Assembly (NCBI GenBank): GCA_963809485.1
Contig: CAWEJX010000007.1
Location: 224,001 to 288,000, forward strand
Direction: 5' to 3'
Origin: an uncultured Acidobacteriota bacterium
Lineage (GTDB): Bacteria; Acidobacteriota; UBA6911
DNA length: 64,000 nt
Both the position numbers and the translations under genes were made by a program. Positions 29,527 to 43,500 of this stretch are shown piece after piece. Numbering within the stretch: position 1 is the stretch's first letter; the number at the start of each line of letters is the position of its first letter. The notes under the pieces were generated by a model. That model saw nothing but the letters and a program-made list of their open reading frames with translations. It ran no database searches and was not told the origin of the DNA.

Positions 29527-31607
29527 GTGGATGACTCGGTTGGAGCCGTGAATTCCAGAGCCATGTTCTTCAGCTTTTTGACCTGGTCCCGGAGCGCCGC
29601 AGCCTTTTCAAACTCGAATACCTTGGCAGCCTCGCGCATTTCCTTCTCCAGGCGCTTTATCTCAAGCTCCAGTTCTTCGGCGGAGTTGTAATGGGTAGCC
29701 TCTTCCGCAATTTCGGGAAGCTCATAATAGTCGCCCTCGTAGATCCGTATCAGATCCGGGTCGAGGGGCTTGATGATGGACTGAGGGATGATGCCGTTTT
29801 CCTCGTTGTAGCGCTGCTGCGCCGCCCGCCGGCGGTTGGTCTCCTCCATGGCGGATTGCATGGATCCGGTCACCACATCGGCGTACAGGATAGCTTTGCC
29901 GTTGACGTGGCGGGCTGCACGTCCGATGGTTTGTATCAGCGAGGTCGTGGACCTGAGGAATCCTTCCTTGTCGGCATCCAGGATGGCCACGAGCGAGACC
30001 TCAGGCAGATCCAGCCCTTCCCGCAGAAGGTTTATGCCGATCAGGGCATCGAATTCCCCCGCCCGCAGGGCTCTCAGGATCTTGATGCGTTCCAGGGTTT
30101 CCACTTCGGAATGGAGATAGCGCACCCGCAATCCCAGCTCCGTGTAATATTCGGCGAGATCTTCAGCCATGCGCTTGGTCAGGGTCGTGACAAGCACCCG
30201 CTCATTGCATTCCGCCCGGCGGCGTATCTCTTCCATGAGATTGTCGACCTGGCCGGAAACGGGGCGCACCTCGATCTGAGGATCGGTCAAACCGGTCGGC
30301 CGCACAAGTTGCTCTACCACGACACCCGCCGATCTGGTGAGCTCGTATGGACCCGGCGTGGCGGAAACATAAATCACCTGGTTCAGCCGGTTCTCGAATT
30401 CGGCGAAATTTAGCGGCCGGTTATCCATAGCCGAAGGCAGCCGGAAGCCATATTTGACCAAAATCTCCTTCCGGGATCGGTCTCCAAAATACATCCCGCG
30501 CACCTGGGGGATCGTCGCATGGCTCTCGTCCACAAACAGCAGCCAGTCGCGGGGTATGTAGTCGATCAGCGTCGGCGGAGGTTCCCCCGGCTGGCGGCCC
30601 GTCAGGTGGCGCGAATAGTTCTCGATCCCGCGGCAGTAGCCGAGTTCCCGCATCATTTCGAGGTCGAACATAGTGCGCTGGTGAAGCCGGCGCGCTTCCA
30701 GCAGCTTGTTTTCCTGCTCCAGCCTGCCCCGCCATTCCTCCAGCTCTTCCCGGATGCTGTCCATTGCGCTCAGGATCTGCTCCCTGGGCTGGACGTAGTG
30801 GGATTTCGGGTAAATAGGCAGGCGGTCGTGCTTTTTCAGGGTGCGCCCCGTTACCGGGTCGATCTGGGCGATGGACTCGATCTCGTCGCCGAACATCTCG
30901 ATGCGGATGGCATAGTCCTCATAAGATGGAAACACCTCCACGACATCTCCGCGCGCCCGGAAGGAGCCCCTTTCCAGGCCGTAGTCCTGGCGGGAATACT
31001 GCATATCAACCAGGCGGCCCAGGATCGCGTCGCGGCGTATCTTCTGCCCTTTTTCCAGGAAGATCAGCATCCCATAGTACGCTTCCGGCGAGCCGAGCCC
31101 GTAGATGCATGAAACGCTCGCGACGATGATGCAGTCCCGGCGCTCGAAGAGGGAGCGGGTTGCCGAATGGCGCAGCCGGTCGATTTCGTCGTTGATCAGG
31201 GCGTCTTTTTCAATATAGGTGTCCGTGGCGGCGATATAGGCTTCCGGCTGATAGTAGTCGTAGTACGAAACAAAATACTCCACGGCGTTTTCGGGGAAAA
31301 ACGACCTGAACTCCCGGTAAAGCTGTGCGGCGAGCGTCTTGTTGTGGGCAAGGACAAGAGCGGGCCGCTGCAGAGCCTCGATAGTCTTGGCCATGGTGAA
31401 GGTCTTGCCGGATCCCGTAACTCCAAGCAGCACCTGGTGTTTGGCCCCATCCCGGACTCCCTGGACCAGCTGTTCGATGGCCTCGGCCTGGTTGCCGCGA
31501 AGCTCGAAGGGATTGTTGATGTGAAACTGGGACGAATGAATGAGAGCCCTTCCATAGGAGATGTCGGAGTAGGTAAGGTCTTTGTCTGGGGCAGGTTTCC
31601 TTGGCAT
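29523..31607 (-). CDS. uvrB: Excinuclease ABC subunit B
   Basis: [36 protein letters not shown]-terminal UVR domain. Start uncertain. Confidence 0.96.
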
Positions 31608-31888
31608 TTGGCTGTTTCGAAAATAATTATTATACCTCTTCCTTCGGGTCTTTGAGTCTTCGAGGTATATTTAGTGGCTCAAGCTTTTACAGGAGACAGG
31701 AATTTACAGGAAAAAAGAGCCGGAAGCCGGGAGTCGGAAGCTGTTTTACGGTCAGGTGCATATATCAGCCGGCCCTGTGGGGGTTTTGGCTGCCGGACAA
31801 ACATCCCTGCACTCAGGCTTCCGGGTTGCGCGGCTTACGAGCAGATGAGGCCGCCGCACGATGCGCGACGAAAAGAGGATATAGGGGA

Positions 31889-33688
31889 TTGAGTGACAAA
31901 AACCATATAAGGAATTTTTCCATCATCGCGCATATCGACCACGGCAAATCGACCCTGGCGGATCGCCTGCTGGAACGGACCGGCGCGCTTACCAAGCGTG
32001 AGATGTCGGACCAGGTTCTGGATGCCATGGATCTGGAGCGGGAGCGCGGCATCACCATTAAAGCGCACTCCGTCCGTCTGAATTACTGTGCCGCAAACGG
32101 CGAGGACTATATCCTCAACCTGATCGACACGCCGGGGCACGTAGATTTCTCCTATGAAGTCTCCCGGAGCCTTTCAGCCTGCGAGGGCGCACTGCTCGTC
32201 GTGGACGCTTCCCAGGGCGTCGAGGCTCAGACCCTCGCCAACACCTACCTGGCCCTGGATCACCACCTCGAGATCGTGCCCGTCATCAACAAAATCGATT
32301 TGCCGGGCGCGGAAATCCCGCGCATCAGGGACCAGATAGAAAATATCATCGGGCTGGACGCCAAGGACGCCATTCTTGCCAGCGCCAAGGAGGGAATCGG
32401 CACCGAAGAAATCCTTGAGGCGATCGTGCACCGGCTGCCTCCGCCGCAGGGTGAGTATGACCGGCCGCTGAAGGCTTTGATTTTCGACTCCTGGTTCGAT
32501 TCCTATCGGGGAGTGATCGTGCAGGTGCGCGTCATCGACGGCACGCTGCGCAAGGGGCAGAAGATCCGGATGGTCGCAACCGCCCAGGTCTTCACCGTCG
32601 AGCAGGTGGGCGTCCTCACCCCCAAGCTCCTGGAGGTGGAGGAGCTGTCGGTGGGGGAGGTGGGTTATGTGATCGCCAACATCAAGCGTGTCGCCGACAC
32701 ACGCATCGGGGACACCGTCACGGAGGACGCCCGGCCGACGCCCGAGCCTTTCCCCGGATTCCAGGAAGTGAAGCCCATGGTTTTTGCGGGGCTCTACCCG
32801 ACCGACAATGCTTACTATGAGGCTCTCCGCGACGCTCTCTCGAAGCTGCAGCTGAATGATTCGGCCTTTTATTATGAACCGGACACATCGGGCGCCCTGG
32901 GATTCGGATTCCGCTGCGGCTTTCTCGGACTGCTGCACATGGAGATCGTGCAGGAACGCCTGGAGCGCGAATTCAACCTTTCATTGATCACTACGGCTCC
33001 GGGGGTGCGGTACCGTATTACGACGCACAAAGGCGAAACGTTTGAAATTCACAATCCCTCGAAGCTTCCGGAAGCAGGCGAGATCGCCAAATTCGAAGAG
33101 CCGATGATCAAGGCCATGATTCTCACCAACGACGAGTACGTCGGACCGATTCTCAAACTGGCCGAGGAAAAACGCGGAGTGCAGAAGGGCTTCGAATACA
33201 TCACGAAGAACCGGGTCCTGATCACCTACGAGCTCCCGCTGAACGAGATCGTCCTGGATTTTTACGACCGGATGAAATCGGCATCCAGAGGCTATGCCTC
33301 TCTGGACTACCATTTTTGCGGATACCAGGAATCCCGTCTGGTCCGGCTGGATATCCTGGTGTCCGGAGAGCCGGTGGATGCGCTCTCCCTGATTGTTCAT
33401 CAGGACACGTCCGTGGTTCGGGGGAGAGCCCTGGCAGCAAAAATGAAGGAGCTGATTCCCCGGCAAATGTTCGAGGTTGTCATACAGGCTGCCATCGGCA
33501 ACAAAATCCTGGCGCGTGAAGTGGTCCGGCCCATGCGGAAGAACGTGCTGGCAAAGTGCTACGGGGGCGACATCACGAGAAAAAGAAAGCTGCTGGAAAA
33601 ACAAAAGGAAGGCAAAAAGCGGATGAAGCGTCTGGGCAAGGTCGAAATTCCGCAGGAAGCGTTCCTGGCAATCCTAAAAGTGGAGTGA
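31889..33688 (+). CDS. lepA: Translation elongation factor 4
   Basis: [45 protein letters not shown]; TTG start at 31889. Confidence 0.97.
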
Positions 33689-33833
33689 AGTCTAGCCGAG
33701 GAAAAGAAGCCGGGAAAAAAGGAATCATGAAGTCTGTACTTCAGTTTTAAACTGGGAACTCTGAACTGGAAACTGAATTTCTTGAACCATTCAGATATAC
33801 AATTTCCCAGGTAATTGACCGGCCAATCGCTGC

Positions 33834-34982
33834 CTATTTTTCTTCTCCAGCCGATCCTGAAGGGTGGAGTTTTTTCAGTTTGCTTGACACCTTGGCAAGC
33901 CGATTGATGAGGCGCTGCATTGTAAGCTGTTGTTTTGAAGCGTTGAGGCCTCGCCGATTCATTTCGAGGAAGTGCATCGCATCGGCAATGCACTGGAGAG
34001 CACGGATATGAGGGTGTACGGATTGGTTACGGGGATTGCTGCGTTGCGGCAGCTGGTAGAGGTTGGCCAGGTTGGCTCGGGCCGAACTATATTCGCGTTG
34101 TAGATCTACCTGACTCACCTCTACATAACGCATTGTCATTTCGATTTTTGTATGTCCGAGGAGTGTTTTGACTGCAGGCAGGCTGGCGCCGCCGCGGAGC
34201 ATCTCGGTCGCAAAAGTATGTCTCATTTGATGCGTCGTGATTCGGGACGCACTGCAGTTTGCTTTTCGGGCCGCTTTCCTGATCATCGCGACCATTTGGC
34301 TATACGAAGGACGGGAGCCATCTTCGCGCATTAGCAAGAAGGTGGATAATTTTCTGGCCTTAGCCGGGGCTCGATTGCGCAAATCATCGAGGTGTTCAAT
34401 AAGACTACGGCTATGGGCGTCCAAGGGAACCAATCTTTCCGTATGCATCTTGCCGAGAGGGACGCGGATTGCCCACTGTTGATCGCCCAGATCCCGGAAG
34501 CAATCGACTGCGAGATTCAAACATTCACCAACGCGCATACCGGTGGCACGCATGAGAAGCAGCGCAGTTGCTTCAACGGTGCCTTTTTTGCGGAGTTCTT
34601 CGCAAATGAGGCGATCATCTTCGGGCGAGAGGGGCCGGGGAAGGTACTTGTCCAGGTGTGGGAAGTCTCGGCGAACGATGAGGTTTTCTCTTATTCGGTC
34701 TATTCCTTCATCGGCAAGGTCGCGAAGGCACTTGCGTAGCTCATAGAGTTGGTGGAGACGGGTGCAGGTTCGGGAGCTGGCCAAAGTTGAGATCCATCCG
34801 AGGATATGCGGATCCCGCCTGAGTTGGGAGAGCTTATGAATCTCGGGGTGGTTTTGTTTGAGGAAGCGCATGAAGCCATTCAAAGTGCTTCGATACCGAT
34901 ACATCGTGTTTGGCCTGTGAACAATAGCAAGACTCTGAAGATAGGAATCGAAGATCTGTTGAATAGTGCGCGGTTTACTCAT
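33834..34982 (-). CDS. Tyrosine recombinase/integrase (second of pair) with C-terminal extension
   Basis: GMRVGE (R), GK, HQMRH, LLGH, TMRY; ATG 34982 overlaps the upstream integrase end. Confidence 0.9.
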   Translation of the reverse strand: MSKPRTIQQIFDSYLQSLAIVHRPNTMYRYRSTLNGFMRFLKQNHPEIHKLSQLRRDPHILGWISTLASSRTCTRLHQLYELRKCLRDLADEGIDRIRENLIVRRDFPHLDKYLPRPLSPEDDRLICEELRKKGTVEATALLLMRATGMRVGECLNLAVDCFRDLGDQQWAIRVPLGKMHTERLVPLDAHSRSLIEHLDDLRNRAPAKARKLSTFLLMREDGSRPSYSQMVAMIRKAARKANCSASRITTHQMRHTFATEMLRGGASLPAVKTLLGHTKIEMTMRYVEVSQVDLQREYSSARANLANLYQLPQRSNPRNQSVHPHIRALQCIADAMHFLEMNRRGLNASKQQLTMQRLINRLAKVSSKLKKLHPSGSAGEEK

Positions 34983-36033
34983 CGAAGGAAGCACTCCGGA
35001 GTTGGGCCAACGCTTGCGATCGCTTTTCGACGGCGCGGTGATATTCCCGCCAGACATCCTGGGGAGACAATTCCACGTAGAGCATGGTCGTGTGAATCTG
35101 AGAATGACCCATGAGTCGCATCAGTGCGGGTACTGAAACGCCGGCACGGATCATGTCGGCACCGAAGGTGTGGCGGAACCGATGCGGGTGGGCGTTGATC
35201 GTTTGAGTCGCACGTCGATGGTGACGAAACAACGAACGCAGGCCGGCGGATGTCATCGGTTGGCCGCGCCGCCATCCCTTGAGAGAAAGAAACAGGAGGG
35301 GCGACCCGAAAGCAGGCCGTTCGAATTCGAGATAACGCCTAAGAACCCGAATGATCGCATCTGCCAATGGCAGAACCCGCTGTCTGTTTCCTTTGCCACG
35401 AACAAAGATCTGAGTCTCGGAAAGCCGCAAATCTTCGAGCCGGAGTTGGATCGTTTCATGGGAACGCAGGCCGTTAAAAAGCATCAATCCCACGAGACTG
35501 AGGTCACGGAAGGTGCGAAAGCTGGACCAGAAACGTGAAACTTCATCAGGCTGGAGGGGGATGACGACTTTTCGAGGTTGTCGTAACCGCAGTCCCGCGA
35601 TTGCGGTGCTGGGTTTTCCTATGCCCATTGGACTTCGTCTCTTGTATCGGGTTTGCACACTGGCGCGAGTTCTGGGGACTTCCTTCTGGTAGTAGAATCG
35701 GTACAGGGATCGGACAACCACCAAACGATGATTGACCGTAGGCGGCGACGGCTTGGGTTCGTTTTCAAGTTGGTATCGAACGTAATCGAGCAGACGAAGC
35801 TCGTTGAGAGTGGATAGACTCGGCCAGCGAGAACCGTGTAACCACCAACGGACGAAGTTCAACAGATCGAACCCATACGAGCGCAAGGAACGGACGGAAA
35901 GGTTGCGCAGGTACTGGGCATCCAGAAAATCATTGATGAAACGGACCGGCTGGTCCTTAGAATCCAAGAGTTGATAGGGAGACATGCCCGCAGGGCCGGA
36001 TGGGTAACGAATGAGATGAAAAGGCGGGGTCAT
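34975..36033 (-). CDS. Tyrosine recombinase/integrase (first of pair)
   Basis: GLRSHE (R), GKG, HRFRH, LMGH, TMLY; ATGA overlap with the primase stop. Confidence 0.9.
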   Translation of the reverse strand: MTPPFHLIRYPSGPAGMSPYQLLDSKDQPVRFINDFLDAQYLRNLSVRSLRSYGFDLLNFVRWWLHGSRWPSLSTLNELRLLDYVRYQLENEPKPSPPTVNHRLVVVRSLYRFYYQKEVPRTRASVQTRYKRRSPMGIGKPSTAIAGLRLRQPRKVVIPLQPDEVSRFWSSFRTFRDLSLVGLMLFNGLRSHETIQLRLEDLRLSETQIFVRGKGNRQRVLPLADAIIRVLRRYLEFERPAFGSPLLFLSLKGWRRGQPMTSAGLRSLFRHHRRATQTINAHPHRFRHTFGADMIRAGVSVPALMRLMGHSQIHTTMLYVELSPQDVWREYHRAVEKRSQALAQLRSASFDE

Positions 36034-37037
36034 ACACATTGTGCTTCCTCCAGACATCTTGTGAAATCAGCAGCGGTGGCTCCGGAAACAAAGAAACTAT
36101 TGGGATCATGGTTTTCCGGAAGCGGTACGATCTTCGATTGCAGACCGGCCTCCCGGAGTTGCCGTGCCAGTTTCAAAGCAGCGCGTTGACCGGCAGCATT
36201 CGTATCCGAGTCAAAAGCAATGAAGATCTGTCTATTGAGATCGTCGCATAGTTGGGCAAACTGCTTGCCTGTCAGGTGGCAGCCGAGAGCGCTGGTTGTA
36301 TTGCGAAAGCCAGCCTGCCAGAGAACCGCAAGATCGAAAAGGCCTTCCACCAGGATAACGTTGGGAGCATTGTGAATCGACTCCCATGCGACCAGGCCGA
36401 TCCTAACACGAGGCAGAAATCGATGTGGCGGCGGGGGACCGATGCTGCGTCCGTACAGATTGACGATGCGGTTCTGATCGAGACAAGGAAAGACGATGCG
36501 GTGAAAGAAGGTGTCATGCCCCTTTTGATTTATCAATCCAAGATTCACGAGCCGGTCGTAATTGTGGCCGCATACCGATAACAGGTGCCCACGCAAACTG
36601 CCGCCTGGCGCATAGCCCAATCGAAGGTGACGTAATATCTCTGGATCCCGCAATCCGCGTTGGTGAAGATAGTTCATCGCTTCCTGGTGGTGCTGCAACT
36701 GATACTGGTAAAAAGCGACCGTATCGCGGAGGAGGTCGTCATCACCCCTGAGCTTGTCCCATTCTCCGGCCAGCCGTGCGACGCTATCGCGGAAAGAAAG
36801 GTTGAAGTAGACCTGGACGAAGCGAATCAAGTCGCCGCCATAGCCACAGCCATGGCAGTGAAAAAGATTTTTCTCGGCGTTGACATAGAACGACGGCTGG
36901 GTCTCGGAGTGCAGCGGGCACAATCCAACATATTCGTTCCCTGAACCCACAGGACGGCCAGTCCAATTGAGGCGTTTGAGATAATCCAACAGTGGAAGAT
37001 CGCGCTTAAGTTTTTCCACTTCCTTGCAGTTTGCCAT
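36030..37037 (-). CDS. DnaG-like primase (CHC2 zinc finger + TOPRIM), lacking the C-terminal helicase-binding domain
   Basis: GLCPLH..PSF...FHCHGC, VEGLFD, FDSD; GGAGG before ATG 37037. Confidence 0.88.
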   Translation of the reverse strand: MANCKEVEKLKRDLPLLDYLKRLNWTGRPVGSGNEYVGLCPLHSETQPSFYVNAEKNLFHCHGCGYGGDLIRFVQVYFNLSFRDSVARLAGEWDKLRGDDDLLRDTVAFYQYQLQHHQEAMNYLHQRGLRDPEILRHLRLGYAPGGSLRGHLLSVCGHNYDRLVNLGLINQKGHDTFFHRIVFPCLDQNRIVNLYGRSIGPPPPHRFLPRVRIGLVAWESIHNAPNVILVEGLFDLAVLWQAGFRNTTSALGCHLTGKQFAQLCDDLNRQIFIAFDSDTNAAGQRAALKLARQLREAGLQSKIVPLPENHDPNSFFVSGATAADFTRCLEEAQCV

Positions 37038-37420
37038 CAGAGCCTCCGGACGGGAACGCCTGTTCGGCCGCAAATGATGCAGGCGATACGTTCGAGAGGG
37101 TTTGCTCTCGCAGATCCGACGTTCCCTGACTTTGATGGATCGATCCTGACATTACTGTCTTGGCTTCTGGAACCCTGATACGTCACGCTTTTTTTATTGG
37201 ACTGGCGCAGACGATAGTTGCGCTGGTGGTCTCGATGGTCGAGTTTGCCTAAGGGACTTTGCCGGTAGCGTCTATTCGCTTCGCGCAGTTGGTGCCGGCG
37301 GGCGCGGTCCCGACATGCCTGACTGCAGTAGTGCTGTCCGCGATCGCAGTGACTGCAGATATGGAATATCTTGCCGCACCCCGCGGCATGGCAAGATCGT
37401 TGCCGGAGGATGAGTTCCAG
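37037..37420 (-). CDS. Cys-rich, basic putative Zn-finger protein (not in ORF track; CTG start or a 1-nt error near 37421)
   Basis: Open frame LELILRQRSCHAAGCGKIFHICSHCDRGQHYCSQACRDRARRHQLREANRRYRQS...CIICGR; its TGA overlaps the primase ATG (TGATG). Confidence 0.72.
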   Translation of the reverse strand: MELILRQRSCHAAGCGKIFHICSHCDRGQHYCSQACRDRARRHQLREANRRYRQSPLGKLDHRDHQRNYRLRQSNKKSVTYQGSRSQDSNVRIDPSKSGNVGSARANPLERIACIICGRTGVPVRRL

Positions 37421-37494
37421 GGGCCAATCGTCCTTTCCCGAAGGCGGGACTCGACAACGGCCCCCATGTCATGGCACGCTAAAGACGACTTTGG

Positions 37495-37562
37495 TTCTGG
37501 GAGCTTTAACCGGGCTCTTGGAATTTAGCCTCGATCGTTACAGCGGTCGGGGCTTTCTTTTT
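37495..37562 (+). ncRNA. Candidate structured antisense RNA in the element leader
   Basis: Two adjacent 12-bp stems that need G-U pairs and so fold on the + strand only (37495-37523 and 37527-37554), followed by ttcttttt. Confidence 0.55.
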
Positions 37563-37881
37563 CCGCCTTTCACGCCGCCACGATATCACCACCAGGGCTC
37601 AAGAAATCTATTGCAGTTACCCAGAAGCAAAGAACACGGCTGAATAAAAGAGAAACCAGCTGAAAGAAAAAATAGGCAGCCACTCCTGGGCTGGTTTAGA
37701 AAAAACGACATTTTGGCCGGTTAATAGGTAAGTATCTTTTACATGGTTTTTGATATTGTTATACCCTATACCGATGTCTGAACGCCGTTGGAGGCATTCG
37801 GGCGTGGCAGCTCAAATAAGATATAAGGACGGTCCTTCATCCGGCCGATCAGAAGGGCATTCCATGGGGGAACCAAGGCAT

Positions 37882-38268
37882 ATGCGACCTAAATACCTCA
37901 TCCTGCGGGATTGCCAGGGCAAAGGGCTCTTTGGCTGTCTGTTGTCGCTTGTCCTGATGGGAGTGGCGATCTTCCTGGCTATCAAGCTCGGCCCCATGTA
38001 TTACGCGAACTACAACCTGGAAGCCGACGTCGAAACCGAAGCAAGCCGCGCAGGAGCCCGTTTCCTCGACAATGACACGATCATCAACGACATCCTGGTC
38101 ATGGCGAAAAAAAACGAAATTAGGCTCACGAAGGAAAACGTCACCGTGGAGCGTTTTGCCGGCCAGATCCACATCGAGATACGCTATGCCGTTCCGGCCG
38201 ATTTCTTGTTCTTCAAGCGGGACATGAATTTTGAAATATCGGCTTCGAGCTTCATCGGCACATTGTGA
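37882..38268 (+). CDS. Small membrane protein, DUF4845-like
   Basis: Pilin-like hydrophobic N-terminus QGKGLFGCLL...KLGPMYY; located after lepA as DUF4845 genes often are. Confidence 0.6.
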   Translation: MRPKYLILRDCQGKGLFGCLLSLVLMGVAIFLAIKLGPMYYANYNLEADVETEASRAGARFLDNDTIINDILVMAKKNEIRLTKENVTVERFAGQIHIEIRYAVPADFLFFKRDMNFEISASSFIGTL

Positions 38269-38480
38269 CGCTTCAGCCTCCCCGGCCATCGCCCGATTCT
38301 TGATACATACTTAAGCAACCGCGTATCCAAGGAATTTACGAAAAGCTCTTACGAACCGCAGAATGTCGAATAATGAATGATGAATTTCGAAGTCCGGCCC
38401 AAACTTCTGCGGTTCGACATTCGTCATTCGATATTCGTATTTGCTGCCTCGCCGGCAGAACCGGGGGATAGCCCTGCATA

Positions 38481-39156
38481 TTAGGTAGCATACACAACCT
38501 CAAGACCCATCATGTCGGCCAGCTCCTGCATCTCCCGGGTATAATCCCCGTATACCATGGATAGATGGCTTCCAAAATCGCTCAGCTTACGCAAGCATTC
38601 CCGGGCATCAGGAACTTTTAAATGGGCTGCCAGCGAACAACCGATCAGGGTGCCTTTGTTGAAGCCGGTGCAGCCAATAACTTCGCCCTTTGCGAGATAC
38701 ATCTTTGTCCGGCTCCAGCCTGGCCAGCCGTTCCGGATGAATCCAGAAGTCTTCGGAATACTCCAGGAGCACCGGGTCCAGCAACTGCATATCCGGGCCC
38801 AGGTTTTCTCTGAGTTCTTTTGCAAATTCCTTCACACCGGTTTCCGCGTCGGCCCTCTCCTGCTCCGGTGTCCTGCCGTATGCCAGGCTCCACCATGCCG
38901 CCACGTCGATCATGTTTTCAGTCTTAGCCGACTTCGGCCTTTCTCCGACTGAAGGCCGGCACGGCCCTAAACAAACATCGGTATGGATGATGGGAGAATA
39001 GACCGGTTTGACGGCAAGTTTGATATCCAGAGGACGGTCTATCGGTCCTTTGGCAAATTCAGTCCGCTGCGGAGGATCCTTCGCATTCGCAGAATTTGAA
39101 AGCACCAGGGATCCTGCAGCAACGCCGACGCTTCCCAGAAAATCCCGTCTTTTCAT
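38481..39156 (-). pseudogene. Tat-exported L-fucose/L-arabinose isomerase-like protein, internally deleted and out of frame
   Basis: The N-terminal frame (MKRRDFL...) and a C-terminal frame (GC...V.DAR...FGSHLSMVYGDY...L...MGLEV) meet near 38700. Confidence 0.6.
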
Positions 39157-39218
39157 GATTCATTCTCCAAGTGAGGTTTGGAAAAGCTGATCGTAAATTC
39201 TCGTGCCAATGAGTCCTG

Positions 39219-39995
39219 CTACTGCTTGACGGCGGTATACGTGGTGGTGGCGCCTTGCACCTTGTTCTCCCTCCTGATAGACATGGTCTTCCCGTCAGCG
39301 GACACTGTATCGTGAATCACGCTCACAATCTTCCCGTCCTGTTTAATGGTTGAAACGATCGAGCGGTCGTCTGCCTTTGTCAGCGAGACCGTAATGCCGG
39401 GAGGAACCCCTTTGATCGGATAGTCCTTGCCGTCAAATTTTACATCGAACAATTCGCCGGTGGAATCCGAGTACATCAAGCCATCGCCTGTGCTTTTAAA
39501 CGTGAATGTCAGTGCGTTTTCTGAAGCCTCAACCTTCTGTATGCGCCAGGAGCCTGAGGCAGCATGCGATCCCGATGGACCGGCGGCGACGCGGATATAA
39601 CTTTCCTTCGCCGTAATCGGCTGCTTGCTTGCAAGAGGGTACTCGGTGTACTCAAGCGTGGTGGTTTTGCCGTCTGGAGAAACGGCGCTCCTGGACGACT
39701 CGACAACTCTCCCATCCTTTTTGCCAACGGTCTCCACTATTCTGTCGTTTACGACCTTGACAGCCAACGTGTCGAGGTCTTTGGATCCGGGCACAGCCTG
39801 GTCTGTGCCGTCAGCTTTGACGTTGATCTTCGGCACCGCGCTGGGGATTTGAAACCTTCCGTCCTGCAGCACGATAACCGTAGGCTTGTCCGGGAATTTG
39901 GCCGTGTTCAGGTCAACCCTCCAGGTGCCGTCAAACGGACTTTGTGCTGCCCAGGCGAAGACCGGCAGCAGCATTGAAAGCCATAATCTCTTCAT
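39219..39995 (-). CDS. Secreted protein with duplicated beta-barrel (lipocalin-like) domain
   Basis: Signal peptide; two repeats G.W...DG.D...KDG..V.....VS.DGKT. Confidence 0.75.
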   Translation of the reverse strand: MKRLWLSMLLPVFAWAAQSPFDGTWRVDLNTAKFPDKPTVIVLQDGRFQIPSAVPKINVKADGTDQAVPGSKDLDTLAVKVVNDRIVETVGKKDGRVVESSRSAVSPDGKTTTLEYTEYPLASKQPITAKESYIRVAAGPSGSHAASGSWRIQKVEASENALTFTFKSTGDGLMYSDSTGELFDVKFDGKDYPIKGVPPGITVSLTKADDRSIVSTIKQDGKIVSVIHDTVSADGKTMSIRRENKVQGATTTYTAVKQ

Positions 39996-40033
39996 TTTCT
40001 TTCCCCTTTCTGAGTGAAATGTGTTTTTTGAGA

Positions 40034-40261
40034 CTACGGGATCGTAATAAACGGACATCCTGGGACAGAGTCGATCAGCGCCGACATAAGGCGCAGTACC
40101 AGGACAGTCCCGCAAACCAGAACGATAAAACATGCGACGATGAACCAAAGGAGAAAGGCGTTCAGTATCCAGGCTGCCAGGCGTCTGGCATCAGGCGCTT
40201 GTATCTGCCAGCGCTGCCTCAGCGCCTCGCCGATCGGGATCAGATCTCCTTCATCCGGCAT
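40034..40261 (-). CDS. Small hypothetical membrane protein
   Basis: 75-aa ORF with one long hydrophobic helix, co-oriented in the cluster. Confidence 0.4.
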   Translation of the reverse strand: MPDEGDLIPIGEALRQRWQIQAPDARRLAAWILNAFLLWFIVACFIVLVCGTVLVLRLMSALIDSVPGCPFITIP

Positions 40262-40311
40262 GCGATCTCCAGAGTTGTTTCACAGACGCTGTGTAAAAAC
40301 CGTAGAGCCGA

Positions 40312-40512
40312 TCATTCTTCGGGCTCCTCTTCCGGTCCGTTCCGTTTTTTGTCTATCCTGGCGAGGATGCCCCAGAGTTCCTCGATTGTGTCAAACGCCC
40401 GCTTCCCTTCCGTGCCTACCTGTTCGACCGTTCCCACAAACCGGTGGGCACTGCGCCTGTTATGGCGGTAGATCCGGACAATGTAATCGTCCGAGAAAGC
40501 CGATCGCGTCAT
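40312..40512 (-). CDS. Small hypothetical protein downstream of MalT-like regulator
   Basis: YIVRIYR...VG.VE.VG....AF...EELW.IL pattern; co-oriented with the regulator. Confidence 0.6.
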   Translation of the reverse strand: MTRSAFSDDYIVRIYRHNRRSAHRFVGTVEQVGTEGKRAFDTIEELWGILARIDKKRNGPEEEPEE

Positions 40513-40547
40513 GGGGCTAATAAAAACCCGGATGACTCACAGATGGC

Positions 40548-43500
40548 TCACAGATTGGAGGAAGCGATGAAATTTTCTTTGATTTTTTTGTAGAGCTTCT
40601 CGGTTCCCGGGGAGGGAGTAATTCCGAGTACGAAGGAAAGGGTTTGCTTGCAGCGCATGTACATCGACAGGGCTTCGCTTTTCTGGCCGAGGTGAAGATG
40701 GCACTCCATGGCGTGCCGGTAGAGTTCCTCGGCCAGATTATCCAGGTCCAGGCCCTTTTGATAGCAGTCAAGGGCGTCCTGCCACCTGCCGGTCTGCTCG
40801 TACAGGCCGCCCAGCCACTTGATGTTTCCAAGGAACTTCGTCCTCAAACGCTCCCGCAGCGATAGAGCCCAGGGTTCATCGGTCTCGCCGGCCAGGAAGT
40901 GTCCGGCGTAAATCCCCATGGCCCTCTGAGCCGCATGAAAGGCGCGTTCGGTTTCCCTTTCAGTTTTCGCAAGATCGACGAACCTTTCGAAGACCCGTAG
41001 ATCGACCCAGCACTGCCGGTCATCCAAAGTGAGGCGGCCGTCGCGCAGCTGCAGAGCCTGCGGACATCCCAGAAGGGCCCGCAAGCGCTGCAGGTTCACC
41101 TCAAAGGAATGATGCGCCGCATCCCCCTCGGCCTCGGGCCACAGGATATCGGCAATCGCCTCCTCCCTCACACCTTTCCCGCCGAGAGCAAGCAGGACCT
41201 TCAGGAGGTCGAGCGGCTTCTTCCTGGCCTTCCGCGAAAACTCGATGGCTTCCCCATCCCGATGGATTTCGAATCGTCCAAGAGTGTAGATCCTGATCGC
41301 CCAAGGCCACTTGTCAATTTCCAGAGGGGGCGTGTCGGGCAAAAGATGGAGGGTCCGGACAAGTTCCTGAACATACGGCACTTCGATATCATGTTCCAGC
41401 GCCTTTGCGCACAAGCGCGCGAGCACGGCCGGCTGCCAATGGAGCATGATCGTCTTGTACTGATGCTCCACTCCTATTTTCATCGCAGACCGGAGCGCCC
41501 CCACCGCCCGCTTTTCTTTCTCTGCATCGAACAGAAAGTGCGCTTCATCGAGCAGGGAAAAATAGGCGAAATAGGGAGAGCTTCCCATTTTGGAAATAAT
41601 CCGTTTGGTCTTCGAGACCTGGAGAAGGGCCGCCTCATGGTCCCCTTTCGCATGCCGGATTTTGGCGATGAGCTGGCGAATGAGGATTTCGGGGATTGGA
41701 GTAGAGCATTCCTGGCTCATCTGCAGCGCTTTCTCAGCAAGAGCGAGGGCATGATGCAATTTGCCGCCAAGGAAGTGAATCCATCCCGAAATGTATGGAT
41801 GCATATTGGACATGGCGCGCGGCGTTCTAGAGGCGATGGCTTCCATCTTTTGAAGGAACTGCTCAGCCAGTGCCGTATCGTTCATGGACAGAGCCGCGGA
41901 AGACGCCAGTGCGTAGACAAAAGCATCCTGTATATGAATCCCATTCTTTCCCGCCAGTTCGATCACTTCTCCGGCCAAAACAATTGCGGACTGAAGCTCG
42001 GAGGACTGAAACAGCTTCGGCCTCATTTCCGTGACTTTCCAGACAATCAAGGACAGGGGGGTGGCGGAAATGGAGAGCGTCATCGCTTTCGCCTGCTTCA
42101 CCAGAGGGTGCATATTGCCCAAATCCCCGAGCCAGAAGAAGTACGTGACGCTATTTGAGATCGCCTGAAGCCGCAGGCTGTCATCACCTATTTCCGACAG
42201 CAGCCCCACAGCCCGATCCAGCCACTTCCGCACATTCGGGCGGGGCGGAATGGCCCAGGTAAAAAGCCCGACCACGCTTGCCGCTACCCGGGCCTCAATC
42301 TCAGGAGAAGGGAATACCGGGTGGTCGCGAAGCCGGGTCTCGAACCATTCAAACCACGAGGTCAGAGGGGTGAAGTTGTCCCACGCGAGAAGTATGCTGT
42401 CGACCGCGCCGGACCAGGCGAGAAGCGTTCCGGTCACGTCGTTTTGAGCCTCGAAAAGATGAAAGGCCTTTTCGAAACAGGCCGTGCTTTGCAGCGGGCT
42501 TTGGGGCATGAAGCACACGGCCCTCCAGTAGAGAAGCCAGGGAGATGTACTCAGGCCTTCAGGAGGCATTGCCGCCAGCCATTTTTCGACGACCTTGTAC
42601 CTGCCCTGAGAGATAAGCGCCGGCGCCTGAGCAAGGATGAAACGGGCCAGGTTGTTCCAATCCGTTGTCTGGATAAGAAGCTCCGCCGCACCCTCGGTAT
42701 CTCCCGACGACTCGAGCAGGCGCGCCGTCTTGGCCAAAATGGCCGTAATCTGAGCTGGCGTCATTTCGCTTCTGGCGCGGCTTACAAGAAATTCCCTCAA
42801 GAGCTGATGGTAACGAAAGACCGGTTCCGGAGAATGGTCCCGTTCGGTGAAATAGCTGTTTCGCGTCAGCCGGGAAAGAATAGCGGCTGCATTCGAAAGG
42901 CCGGTGAGTTCTTTGGCCATGCTCACTGTGATTCTGGGCAGGAAAGCCGTTTTGAGCAGGAACACTTGCAGTTCCCTGTCGATTCGGGCGAAGAACTGAG
43001 TTCCAAAATAGTCGATAATATCTTCGCGGCTCAACTTGCCGGGTTCGTCACGGAAGATTTGCACTTTCATGCTCTCCAGCATGAGCACCAATCCCGCAAC
43101 CCATCCATCTGCATCCAGGTGGAGTCGCCTTATGTTTTCCAGGGGAATCTCCCGTCCCCTCAAACGTGCGATTCCCGCCGTTTCCTCGATGGTGAGGCGG
43201 AGATCGTCCCACCCCAGCAGGTTCATGGCGCCGTTCGCCCGCAAGCGGGTGAGGGCTTGGGGAAAGGCATGACGGCTGATCACAATTATATTGATCCCCT
43301 CCGGTATGGCTTCGAACGCCTTGCCCATCACTTCGTGAAGCTGGGAATCATCGGACGTCGAGTGATAGTTGTCGAAAACCAGAAGGTAGCCGTGCTTAAG
43401 CCTGCCGAAAAGGTTCTCAAAAAAACGCAGCGCAAAAACCGGGACACCCCCCTGCAAATATTCCGGAGTGAGCAGCGGCATCGGTTTCCGGATTCTGGGT

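Follow-up and report, generated by a model that had tools for sequence, protein, structure and literature searches.

A 3.9-kb unit in the genome of an uncultured Acidobacteriota bacterium is almost certainly a compact, cargo-free and autonomous tyrosine-recombinase transposon. It lies in a window of 64,000 nucleotides, the whole stretch of DNA that was analysed (contig CAWEJX010000007.1 of GenBank assembly GCA_963809485.1, positions 224,001 to 288,000 of the forward strand). Four minus-strand reading frames fill the unit and leave little else: a cysteine-rich (zinc-finger) frame, a DnaG-type primase, and two tyrosine recombinases, here called IntA and IntB. The reading favoured for the whole, with a probability of roughly 55%, is that of a site-selective transposon in which a single strand exchange is completed by DNA synthesis, with that synthesis primed by the element's own primase.

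The evidence for movement begins with a second copy. In a DNA search of the element's own genome, window positions 33811-37732 (3,922 bp, minus strand) proved 100% identical to positions 215000-218921 of another contig (G000:C4). The flanks of the two copies are unrelated and the identity stops at both borders; bases 33808-33810 already differ. By the logic of attachment (att) sites, the element proper would end at 37731. What this comparison shows is recent movement as an exact 3.9-kb unit. The empty site is also found. In a relative of the same genus (genome G006, contig C81), two flanks that are 92% identical to those of the window meet at a single AGGTAAG. Eight further members of the genus have the end of lepA and the downstream gene on a single contig with 157-271 bp between them; in the window the distance is 4,214 bp. 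For the second copy, no empty allele was seen in the five relatives searched, each of which keeps only one flank. An earlier, sequence-only reading of this DNA had proposed a self-contained mobile element without cargo and had predicted the empty allele. Both proposals are borne out, the first by the identical copy in other flanks, the second by the relative. That reading also reported AGGTAA at both borders, which holds for the window copy (33809-33814 and again 37726-37731) and fails for the second copy, whose borders repeat GTAA only. Two other origins for the repeated block were considered. Segmental duplication is ruled out, as the copies' flanks diverge from the first base outside the element, and a DDE-type insertion sequence is ruled out, as the element has no such gene.

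The ends have the form that tyrosine recombinases use. In the orientation of the genes, the IntB-side end is an arm, ATTGGCCGGTCAA, followed by TTACCTG, and the upstream end is TTACCTA followed by an arm, TTAACCGGCCAAA. The two arms are mutually inverted and 11/13 identical in a 13-7-13 register, and the register that serves the family best has 13-bp arms around a 7-bp overlap, TAGGTAA on the plus strand. The ends had earlier been joined as 13-5-13; the inverted 13-bp arms stand, and a 7-bp overlap fits the family better as the core. By itself the window's terminal inverted repeat is unremarkable, and by length it falls outside the top 25 of the 305 inverted pairs in the region. It counts because it lies exactly at the limits of the duplicated block and because it is conserved at the termini of relatives: near-identical arms stand at both termini in 57 of the 64 loci that have primase and IntB. 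The att-type layout proposed at the outset, inverted arms with a shared overlap at the termini, is borne out.

The overlap bears on the choice of insertion sites. The apparent direct repeat at the borders consists of the first bases of the 7-bp stretch that adjoins each arm. In the relative's empty site, the sequence of the IntB-side overlap runs unbroken into the flank. The two targets of the window's element match its overlap at 6/7 and 4/7 bases. When the two overlap copies are compared in 45 distinct insertions, positions 1 to 7 are the same in 42, 44, 42, 41, 21, 14 and 22 cases, respectively, and all seven together in 11. Within each of the two largest lineages the upstream overlap is constant (GTCGAAA in 8/8, GTCGATT in 8/8); the IntB-side overlap varies, and differs from the upstream copy at positions 5-7 in 15 of these 16 insertions. 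The overlaps are specific to lineages (GTCG, TCGGC, TCTCGG, TGAG, CTCATGG and GTTCCAG, with TTAC in the window and in locus L033). This pattern is therefore not that of a target-site duplication made by staggered cuts; it is that of a shared core in site-specific recombination. The junctions show an apparent need for homology on one side only, at the four overlap bases adjoining the IntB-end arm. They likewise show insertion without duplication of new sequence, at sites that share at least the first four bases of the overlap. The suggestion that target choice is relaxed is not upheld: the first four overlap bases are required, and in some lineages, those with GTCG, the flanks resemble the arms. 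The window's flanks do not.

Several observations concern the surroundings of the insertion sites. The element sits in the last bases of a repeat of ~75-90 nt with tandem AACTGGRAACT motifs (window 33735-33814), and at least eight other copies of this type of repeat are present in its own genome (L003-L010). Among the eight checked, five (L003, L004, L005, L006, L008) have GAGTA or TAGTA at their end, extended in four of them to GAGTAA or GAGTAG. The four copies that read ...GTAA share the TTAC core in gene orientation and could be further targets; three of those repeat copies have no match to an Rfam family. A second short repeat family, ~84 nt long and with many copies across the genus, is found at window 38353-38436, with dozens of matches at 75-92% identity (G000, G001, G002, G006, G007, G015 and others). 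Near the empty site (L023, G006:C81), the Acido-Lenti-1 RNA motif (RF01687) occurs three times, at 30-75, 1234-1281 and 1386-1432, two copies being above the gathering score (49.4 and 42.5 bits); window positions 30000-42000 have none at threshold, and no Rfam match at all. Two loci from one metagenome-assembled genome (MAG), L083 and L098, have different left flanks and at least 30 identical bp beyond the IntB-side end. These may reflect insertion into repeated sequence or recombination between copies.

Both recombinases have the Pfam domain Phage_integrase (E = 6e-31 for IntB, 2.3e-31 for IntA) and a SAM-like N-domain. Their best NCBIfam models are those of XerC, XerD and XerA, all far below the cut-offs. 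The nearest solved structures are XerC-like 4a8e (1.6e-23 for IntA), XerD 1a0p and XerA 5hxy, and those nearest to IntB are Xer-type. Both are "simple" Xer-like tyrosine recombinases. The catalytic set R-K-H-R-H-Y, previously noted in both, is indeed complete in the window's IntA and IntB, and it is conserved. Among IntA relatives, R, K, H and R are present in 64/64 non-identical sequences and the last H and Y in 62/64, the two exceptions being truncated sequences; among IntB relatives, which are 370-392 aa long, all six are present in 57/57 non-identical sequences. The IntA stop overlaps the IntB start (ATG 34982) as ATGAGTAA, and the IntA start (ATG 36039 or 36033) is overlapped by the primase stop. 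One member (L034/L035) has an internal stop codon in its IntA gene; some copies in the family are therefore decaying.

The primase contains, by Pfam, Zn_ribbon_DnaG (CHC2), a DNAG_N core and Toprim_2, and no helicase-binding C-terminal domain, in agreement with its first description as a CHC2/TOPRIM primase that lacks the helicase-binding tail. The NCBIfam dnaG domain matches it at 2.9e-53, below that model's cut-off, and a PHROG phage primase family matches at 6e-53. The zinc ligands, the Toprim E and the DxD are invariant in 20 relatives. The stop of the zinc-finger frame and the start of the primase overlap as TGATG.

A profile from an alignment of 20 primase relatives, run against one genome per species, matched at least 598 stretches, and at least 512 loci were confirmed. 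Gene order and taxa were counted over the best 80 of these at least 512 loci. Acidobacteriota MAGs account for 74; the other six come from Alphaproteobacteria (three short contigs) and from one Acidimicrobiia MAG (three long contigs). In 76 of the 80, the gene immediately downstream of the primase, and overlapping it, is IntA, with primase identity down to ~53%. IntB comes next after IntA in 71, the misses being mostly contig ends or interruptions, and the primase stands alone in two loci. L042 and L053 have a family primase without the recombinase pair behind it (what comes next in L053 is unrelated genes on the opposite strand) and are probably remnants. The gene upstream of the primase encodes a Cys-rich protein in 6 of the 80 and a DUF6431 zinc-ribbon protein (PF20020, E = 5e-10) in 69; three loci have neither kind, and two include too little DNA. 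Copies from the same genome share 97-99.9% identity across ~3.98-4.0 kb and no similarity outside it, with up to four of the 80 loci coming from one assembly. The homologous clusters are thus ~4-kb units in other genomes as well, and not pieces of prophages or of an ICE (an integrative and conjugative element). The distribution is patchy: a close primase relative (E <= 1e-80) was found in 2 of 401 genomes of an even sample of the phylum, the window's own included, a figure to be taken as a floor because MAGs often lose repeats. No family member was found among 72,556 plasmid records, where the best primase match is 32% identical. In current annotation, the genes of the family go by no other names than "DNA primase", "integrase" and "hypothetical protein".

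One relative replaces the primase. A genome of the same genus (G012) has two copies of a 3,464-bp element with the same arms, which consists of a shorter Cys-rich gene, a 105-aa open reading frame (ORF) in the slot of the primase, IntA and IntB. This ORF of 105 aa has a match in phrog_19658, a phage family named "replication initiation protein" (E = 1.1e-6). The two copies (L113, G012:C1, 6123-9585 and 10460-13922) are 99.9% identical, 874 bp apart and in the same orientation. Arms and recombinase pair appear to be an old module, with a slot upstream that holds a replication-type gene, here the primase. The coordinates of all features in the window are collected in Table 1.

Table 1. Features of the primase-carrying element, in window coordinates
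Feature	Position	Strand	Remarks
Whole element	33811..37732	-	limits from identity between two same-genome copies
Overlap copy, IntB side	33808..33814		CAGGTAA (+), TTACCTG in gene orientation; target-derived
IntB-side 13-bp arm	33815..33827		TTGACCGGCCAAT (+ strand); same arm at matching terminus of relatives
IntB, second tyrosine recombinase	33834..34982	-	382 aa from ATG 34982; longest ORF to 35057 (407 aa at most)
IntA, first tyrosine recombinase	34975..36039	-	354 aa from ATG 36039; longest ORF to 36057
DnaG-type primase	36030..37037	-	335 aa; start ATG 37037 from database copy and relatives
Cys-rich (zinc-finger) frame	37040..37468	-	143 open codons; no canonical start codon
Non-coding stretch, presumed promoter/control region	37469..37711	-	between upstream end and first gene; no ORF with homologues
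Upstream-end 13-bp arm	37712..37724		TTTGGCCGGTTAA (+ strand); conserved at matching terminus of relatives
Overlap copy carried by element	37725..37731		TAGGTAA (+), TTACCTA in gene orientation; identical in both copies

The mechanism that these features suggest would run as follows. IntA and IntB would bind the arms and, with the ends joined in a circle or a figure-eight, recombine them with a site on the chromosome. Homology would be needed only beside the IntB-end arm; in finished insertions, the upstream end keeps the overlap of the element and the IntB end keeps that of the target. One productive strand exchange at the IntB side would give a Holliday junction, which DNA synthesis would complete when the overlaps differ, and no second homology-dependent exchange would take place. 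Overlap mismatches block the second exchange in most characterised tyrosine recombinase systems. A single exchange followed by synthesis is favoured here because mismatches at positions 5-7 should block the second exchange and because the upstream overlap stays with the element. More speculatively, the primase might prime either second-strand synthesis or the intermediate's copying; the element would then be a self-priming, replicative (copy-out-like) transposon, and the small zinc-binding protein might serve as a DNA-binding accessory factor. Primases that convert transferred single strands to duplex likewise lack a helicase-binding domain. The link to replication is supported by the primase that adjoins IntA in 76/80 loci, by its invariant zinc ligands and Toprim acidic residues, and by the phage replication-type ORF in its slot in the primase-less relative. 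There are precedents. Strand-biased exchange followed by replication has been proposed for SE, integrative elements that circularize with a strand bias, and suggested for Tn554 (PMC10214605), and small elements that combine a priming enzyme with an integrase or resolvase have been proposed to be replicative transposons (PMC2579912).

The alternative that survives best is conservative excision and reintegration, in which both pairs of strands are exchanged, as when a phage or an integrative mobilizable element integrates, the intermediate is a double-stranded circle, and the primase only helps that circle to persist or to be copied. This is possible, if on the whole unlikely. The ends are, of course, a textbook core site, a 7-bp overlap flanked by two inverted arms; judged by their residues, both recombinases remain catalytically intact; the primase-less relatives share the arms; and in the 11/45 insertions with 7/7 overlap identity a two-strand exchange is possible. 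Most insertions, however, have mismatches at overlap positions 5-7, and within a lineage the upstream overlap never takes the bases of the target, where random segregation of a heteroduplex predicts that it should do so in about half of the cases. Nor is a 4-kb circle that has a primase and lacks an initiator and a helicase an obvious replicon.

It is less probable still, and indeed improbable, that the primase is a passenger (serving damage tolerance, action against host defence, or priming for a helper) and that movement of the DNA is the work of the recombinase pair alone. Some relatives do share both arms and pair and have no primase, as this view would have it. Yet primase and IntA remain adjacent and overlapping in 76/80 loci down to ~53% primase identity, the unit stays at ~4 kb with no other cargo ever added, and the slot of the primase-less relative is filled by another replication-type protein. 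From the adjacency and the constant, cargo-free ~4 kb it follows that the primase behaves as a core gene. A prediction of the complex between IntA and primase counts neither for nor against a physical link. That the element is a minimal phage satellite or the remnant of an integrative plasmid, spread by a helper and not a transposon, is very improbable: the primase does match phage primase families, and integrase with primase is a module typical of P4-like satellites, but the unit measures only 3.9 kb and has no helicase domain, capsid, packaging or regulatory genes, several copies occur within single genomes, the insertions are in intergenic or repeat sequence and not in a tRNA gene or a single att site, and the plasmid records hold no member.

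Returning to single exchange completed by self-primed synthesis, several points weigh against it. The empty site of the relative is the ancestral state, and does not distinguish cut-out from copy-out. The one-sided overlap could arise by a homology-independent second exchange with biased repair, or could reflect a longer arm with a short crossover region. Relatives that have the same arms and no primase are present in G012 and on a Mycobacterium plasmid (L234), and the recombination module can therefore do without this primase. Helicase, polymerase and initiator are all missing from the element, and any replication therefore depends on the host.

The joined ends, which the sequence-only reading had proposed to seek as a circle junction, did not appear in the reads, genome, loci or contigs scanned. 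Four public runs, available as contigs only and each with 5-15% of the sampled words, gave sparse pieces, with no end-to-end joint and nothing bridging either border. One contig of X4 follows the window as far as 33814 and then has six bases like the right flank, too short to count as an empty site. A junction motif, made up of two arm cores of 9 bases each and a gap of 8-16 or 8-14 between them, was absent from the element's own genome (0 matches) and from 113 loci (0). Metagenome contigs yielded at least 119 stretches with the motif; of the 80 examined, 78 have no gene of the element nearby. Of two metagenome loci with a recombinase gene, one (L180) has the motif ~4.4 kb from a distant recombinase, and the other (L191), where the motif stands beside a truncated IntB, is ambiguous. 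These stretches show neither a circle nor the absence of one. A last point against the proposed mechanism is a frameshift in the zinc-finger gene of both copies: either the N-terminus is dispensable or the copies moved with help.

This frameshift also qualifies the original description of four coupled genes. The frames do overlap on one strand, with the zinc-finger gene frameshifted in this element. Its frame has no ATG, GTG or TTG before 37186. In a DNA alignment with L033, the closest intact relative, the window is one base short near 37423. The start ATG of the L033 gene corresponds to window 37467, where an ATG now opens a 72-codon out-of-frame ORF (37249-37467); it is cut off from the zinc-finger frame because of the base lost near 37423. 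Since the two copies are identical, both carry the change. A contig from a public run, which may not be independent of the assembly, covers 37235-37476 without difference. Most of 35 aligned Cys-rich homologues begin ~12 residues ahead of the first cysteine, and the lost part is therefore an N-terminal extension absent from many members. The protein may be made from an unusual start, it may be dispensable or supplied in trans, or the copies may be decaying.

The Cys-rich family comprises 315 database proteins, none with a name, and the clusters of a protein atlas are likewise nameless. Its members combine six conserved N-terminal cysteines, five of which are invariant, with a helical hairpin that is very basic and with a CxxC at the C-terminus. 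The protein has no match in Pfam, NCBIfam or PHROG. Its AlphaFold model has a mean pLDDT of 73, and Foldseek against the PDB gave nothing at E <= 0.001, with weak zinc-finger rows only. Single-strand folding of the upstream non-coding end is not unusual (z = 0.38 and -0.52), and scans for promoters and terminators did no better than chance, with no match to a promoter consensus in 37469-37711.

Why such an element matters is readily stated. Tyrosine-recombinase transposons are described as the least understood class in bacteria, with the movement of RIT and Tn554-like elements not worked out; for the copy-out of SE, the source of the DNA synthesis is given as not known (PMC10214605). The present system is very small: it has four genes, arms of a defined 13 bp and an overlap of 7 bp that can be read. 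Since one of its conserved core genes encodes a replication enzyme, mutation of that single gene offers a direct test of how recombination and DNA synthesis are linked. That the overlap is specific to each lineage suggests that a few bases of the element's own DNA set the choice of target, a rule that, if true, would be of interest for programmable site-specific insertion. The family also marks mobile DNA that has gone unrecognised in soil bacteria, Acidobacteriota among them. The most far-reaching proposal is tentative and rather doubtful: that the family as a whole consists of transposons in which a recombinase pair is hard-wired to a DnaG-type primase, and which combine single exchange guided by 4-bp homology, self-priming copy-out, and targets that can be reprogrammed through the overlap. 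If true, this would be a large undescribed family; its lineages differ in the overlap that they use (GTCG, TCGGC, TCTCGG, TGAG, TTAC).

Among known systems, the element has the general layout of a tyrosine-recombinase core site, that is, inverted arms around an overlap of 6-8 bp shared with the target, as far as its ends can be read. The resemblance to RIT elements is one of format. RIT elements are described as ~3.5 kb, cargo-free, with overlapping recombinase genes, terminal inverted repeats and several identical copies (PMC3414803, PMC10214605). The present element shares the small cargo-free unit, the overlapping genes, the inverted end repeats and the identical copies. RIT, however, has three recombinases (ritA, ritB, ritC) and no primase, where the present element has two and a primase. 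Matches to a Bradyrhizobium trio are weaker than those to Tn554-like pairs: IntA is 30% identical to the third member (2e-22) and IntB 24% (3e-11).

As a model of how the element might work, SE is nearest, and it too is a multi-recombinase transposon. Single-strand exchange with replication (copy-out) has been proposed for SE (PMC10214605). SE and GInt are described with four core genes, including a catalytically dead protein of recombinase fold together with Srap or GinD, and with cargo (median 15.7 kb), and are reported from Gamma- and Betaproteobacteria (PMC10214605). The present element, in contrast, has two recombinases of active type by their residues and no dead recombinase-fold protein. 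The NCBIfam models of such trios, GmtY and GmtZ, score far below their cut-offs (21.7 bits against 600, and 27.8 against 340).

The pairing of a priming enzyme with a site-specific recombinase in ~4 kb recalls the TV-Pol elements, described as ~4-kb units of a priming polymerase with a resolvase or integrase and proposed to be replicative transposons (Iyer, Abhiman and Aravind, 2008, PMC2579912). Their priming enzyme is unrelated and their recombinases are of other kinds, and that account of them describes neither a recombinase pair nor defined arms. By its length, the present element also stands apart from larger satellites. P4-like satellites and phage-inducible chromosomal islands (PICI) have an integrase, a primase-helicase, regulatory and capsid-hijacking genes, at least ~10 kb of DNA and a fixed att site; the present element differs from them in having no helicase domain, 3.9 kb, four genes and several unrelated insertion sites. 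A primase-like excision gene is reportedly present in NBU1. BIM elements were considered and ruled out; they are described with one recombinase and an unrelated protein, and no pair (PMC3414803). The table of Idola et al. 2023 lists ICE and integrative mobilizable elements (IME), SE, GInt, RIT and Tn554-related elements, none with a primase (PMC10214605). A search of full-text literature, with ISfinder, subscription papers and supplementary tables outside its range, returned no description of a primase with a recombinase pair. The sequence-only reading had found no named family for this gene set. The gene set does appear undescribed, as far as full-text literature goes, while the recombinase pair matches an actinobacterial Tn554-related pair.

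That match is the closest kinship. The best plasmid matches to IntA (33-37% identical) come from Rhodococcus, Mycobacterium and Dietzia, in which a long recombinase comes after a short one, and pairs of this type are the "Tn554-related" tnpAB(C) elements of Van Houdt et al. 2012 (PMC3414803). The counterpart of IntA is the short member (35-37% identical, E from 1e-54 to 1e-59), that of IntB the long one (29-30%, E from 1e-31 to 1e-38), and both matches are far better than the cross-matches; the proteins compared were those of Mycobacterium and Rhodococcus plasmid pairs and not Tn554's own, and Tn554 itself is set apart by description. Shared with these elements are two adjacent, co-oriented recombinases with catalytic motifs in the same order, compactness, and identical copies at several sites. 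A Mycobacterium sp. plasmid (L234, 3822-7232) carries a short and a long recombinase and a small downstream ORF, with near-identical arms, and extends the arm motif to plasmids of Actinomycetota.

There are also differences. The present element has no TnpC-like gene, and no room for one, because only 6 bp separate the IntB stop (33834-33836) from the end of the arm at 33827; such a gene is reported to be absent from some Tn554-related members also (PMC3414803). IntB, at 382 aa, has no long N-terminal extension, where the long partners compared measure 484 and 651 aa; a length of 611-828 aa with an N-terminal extension of more than 400 aa is given for this partner (PMC3414803). A primase and a zinc-binding gene precede the recombinase pair. 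In the movement described for Tn554 and SE, ~6 bp of the donor's left flank is carried to the new site and the cores of both junctions vary (PMC10214605); the present family, in contrast, has no donor-flank fingerprint, and has one overlap constant (8/8, 8/8) and the other taken from the target. Thus, the primase, the arms and the lack of TnpC set the family apart from the Tn554-related elements. It would be placed, by its genes and ends, within the tyrosine-recombinase transposons, as a group whose recombinase pair is kin to that of Tn554-like elements and which is distinguished by a core primase.

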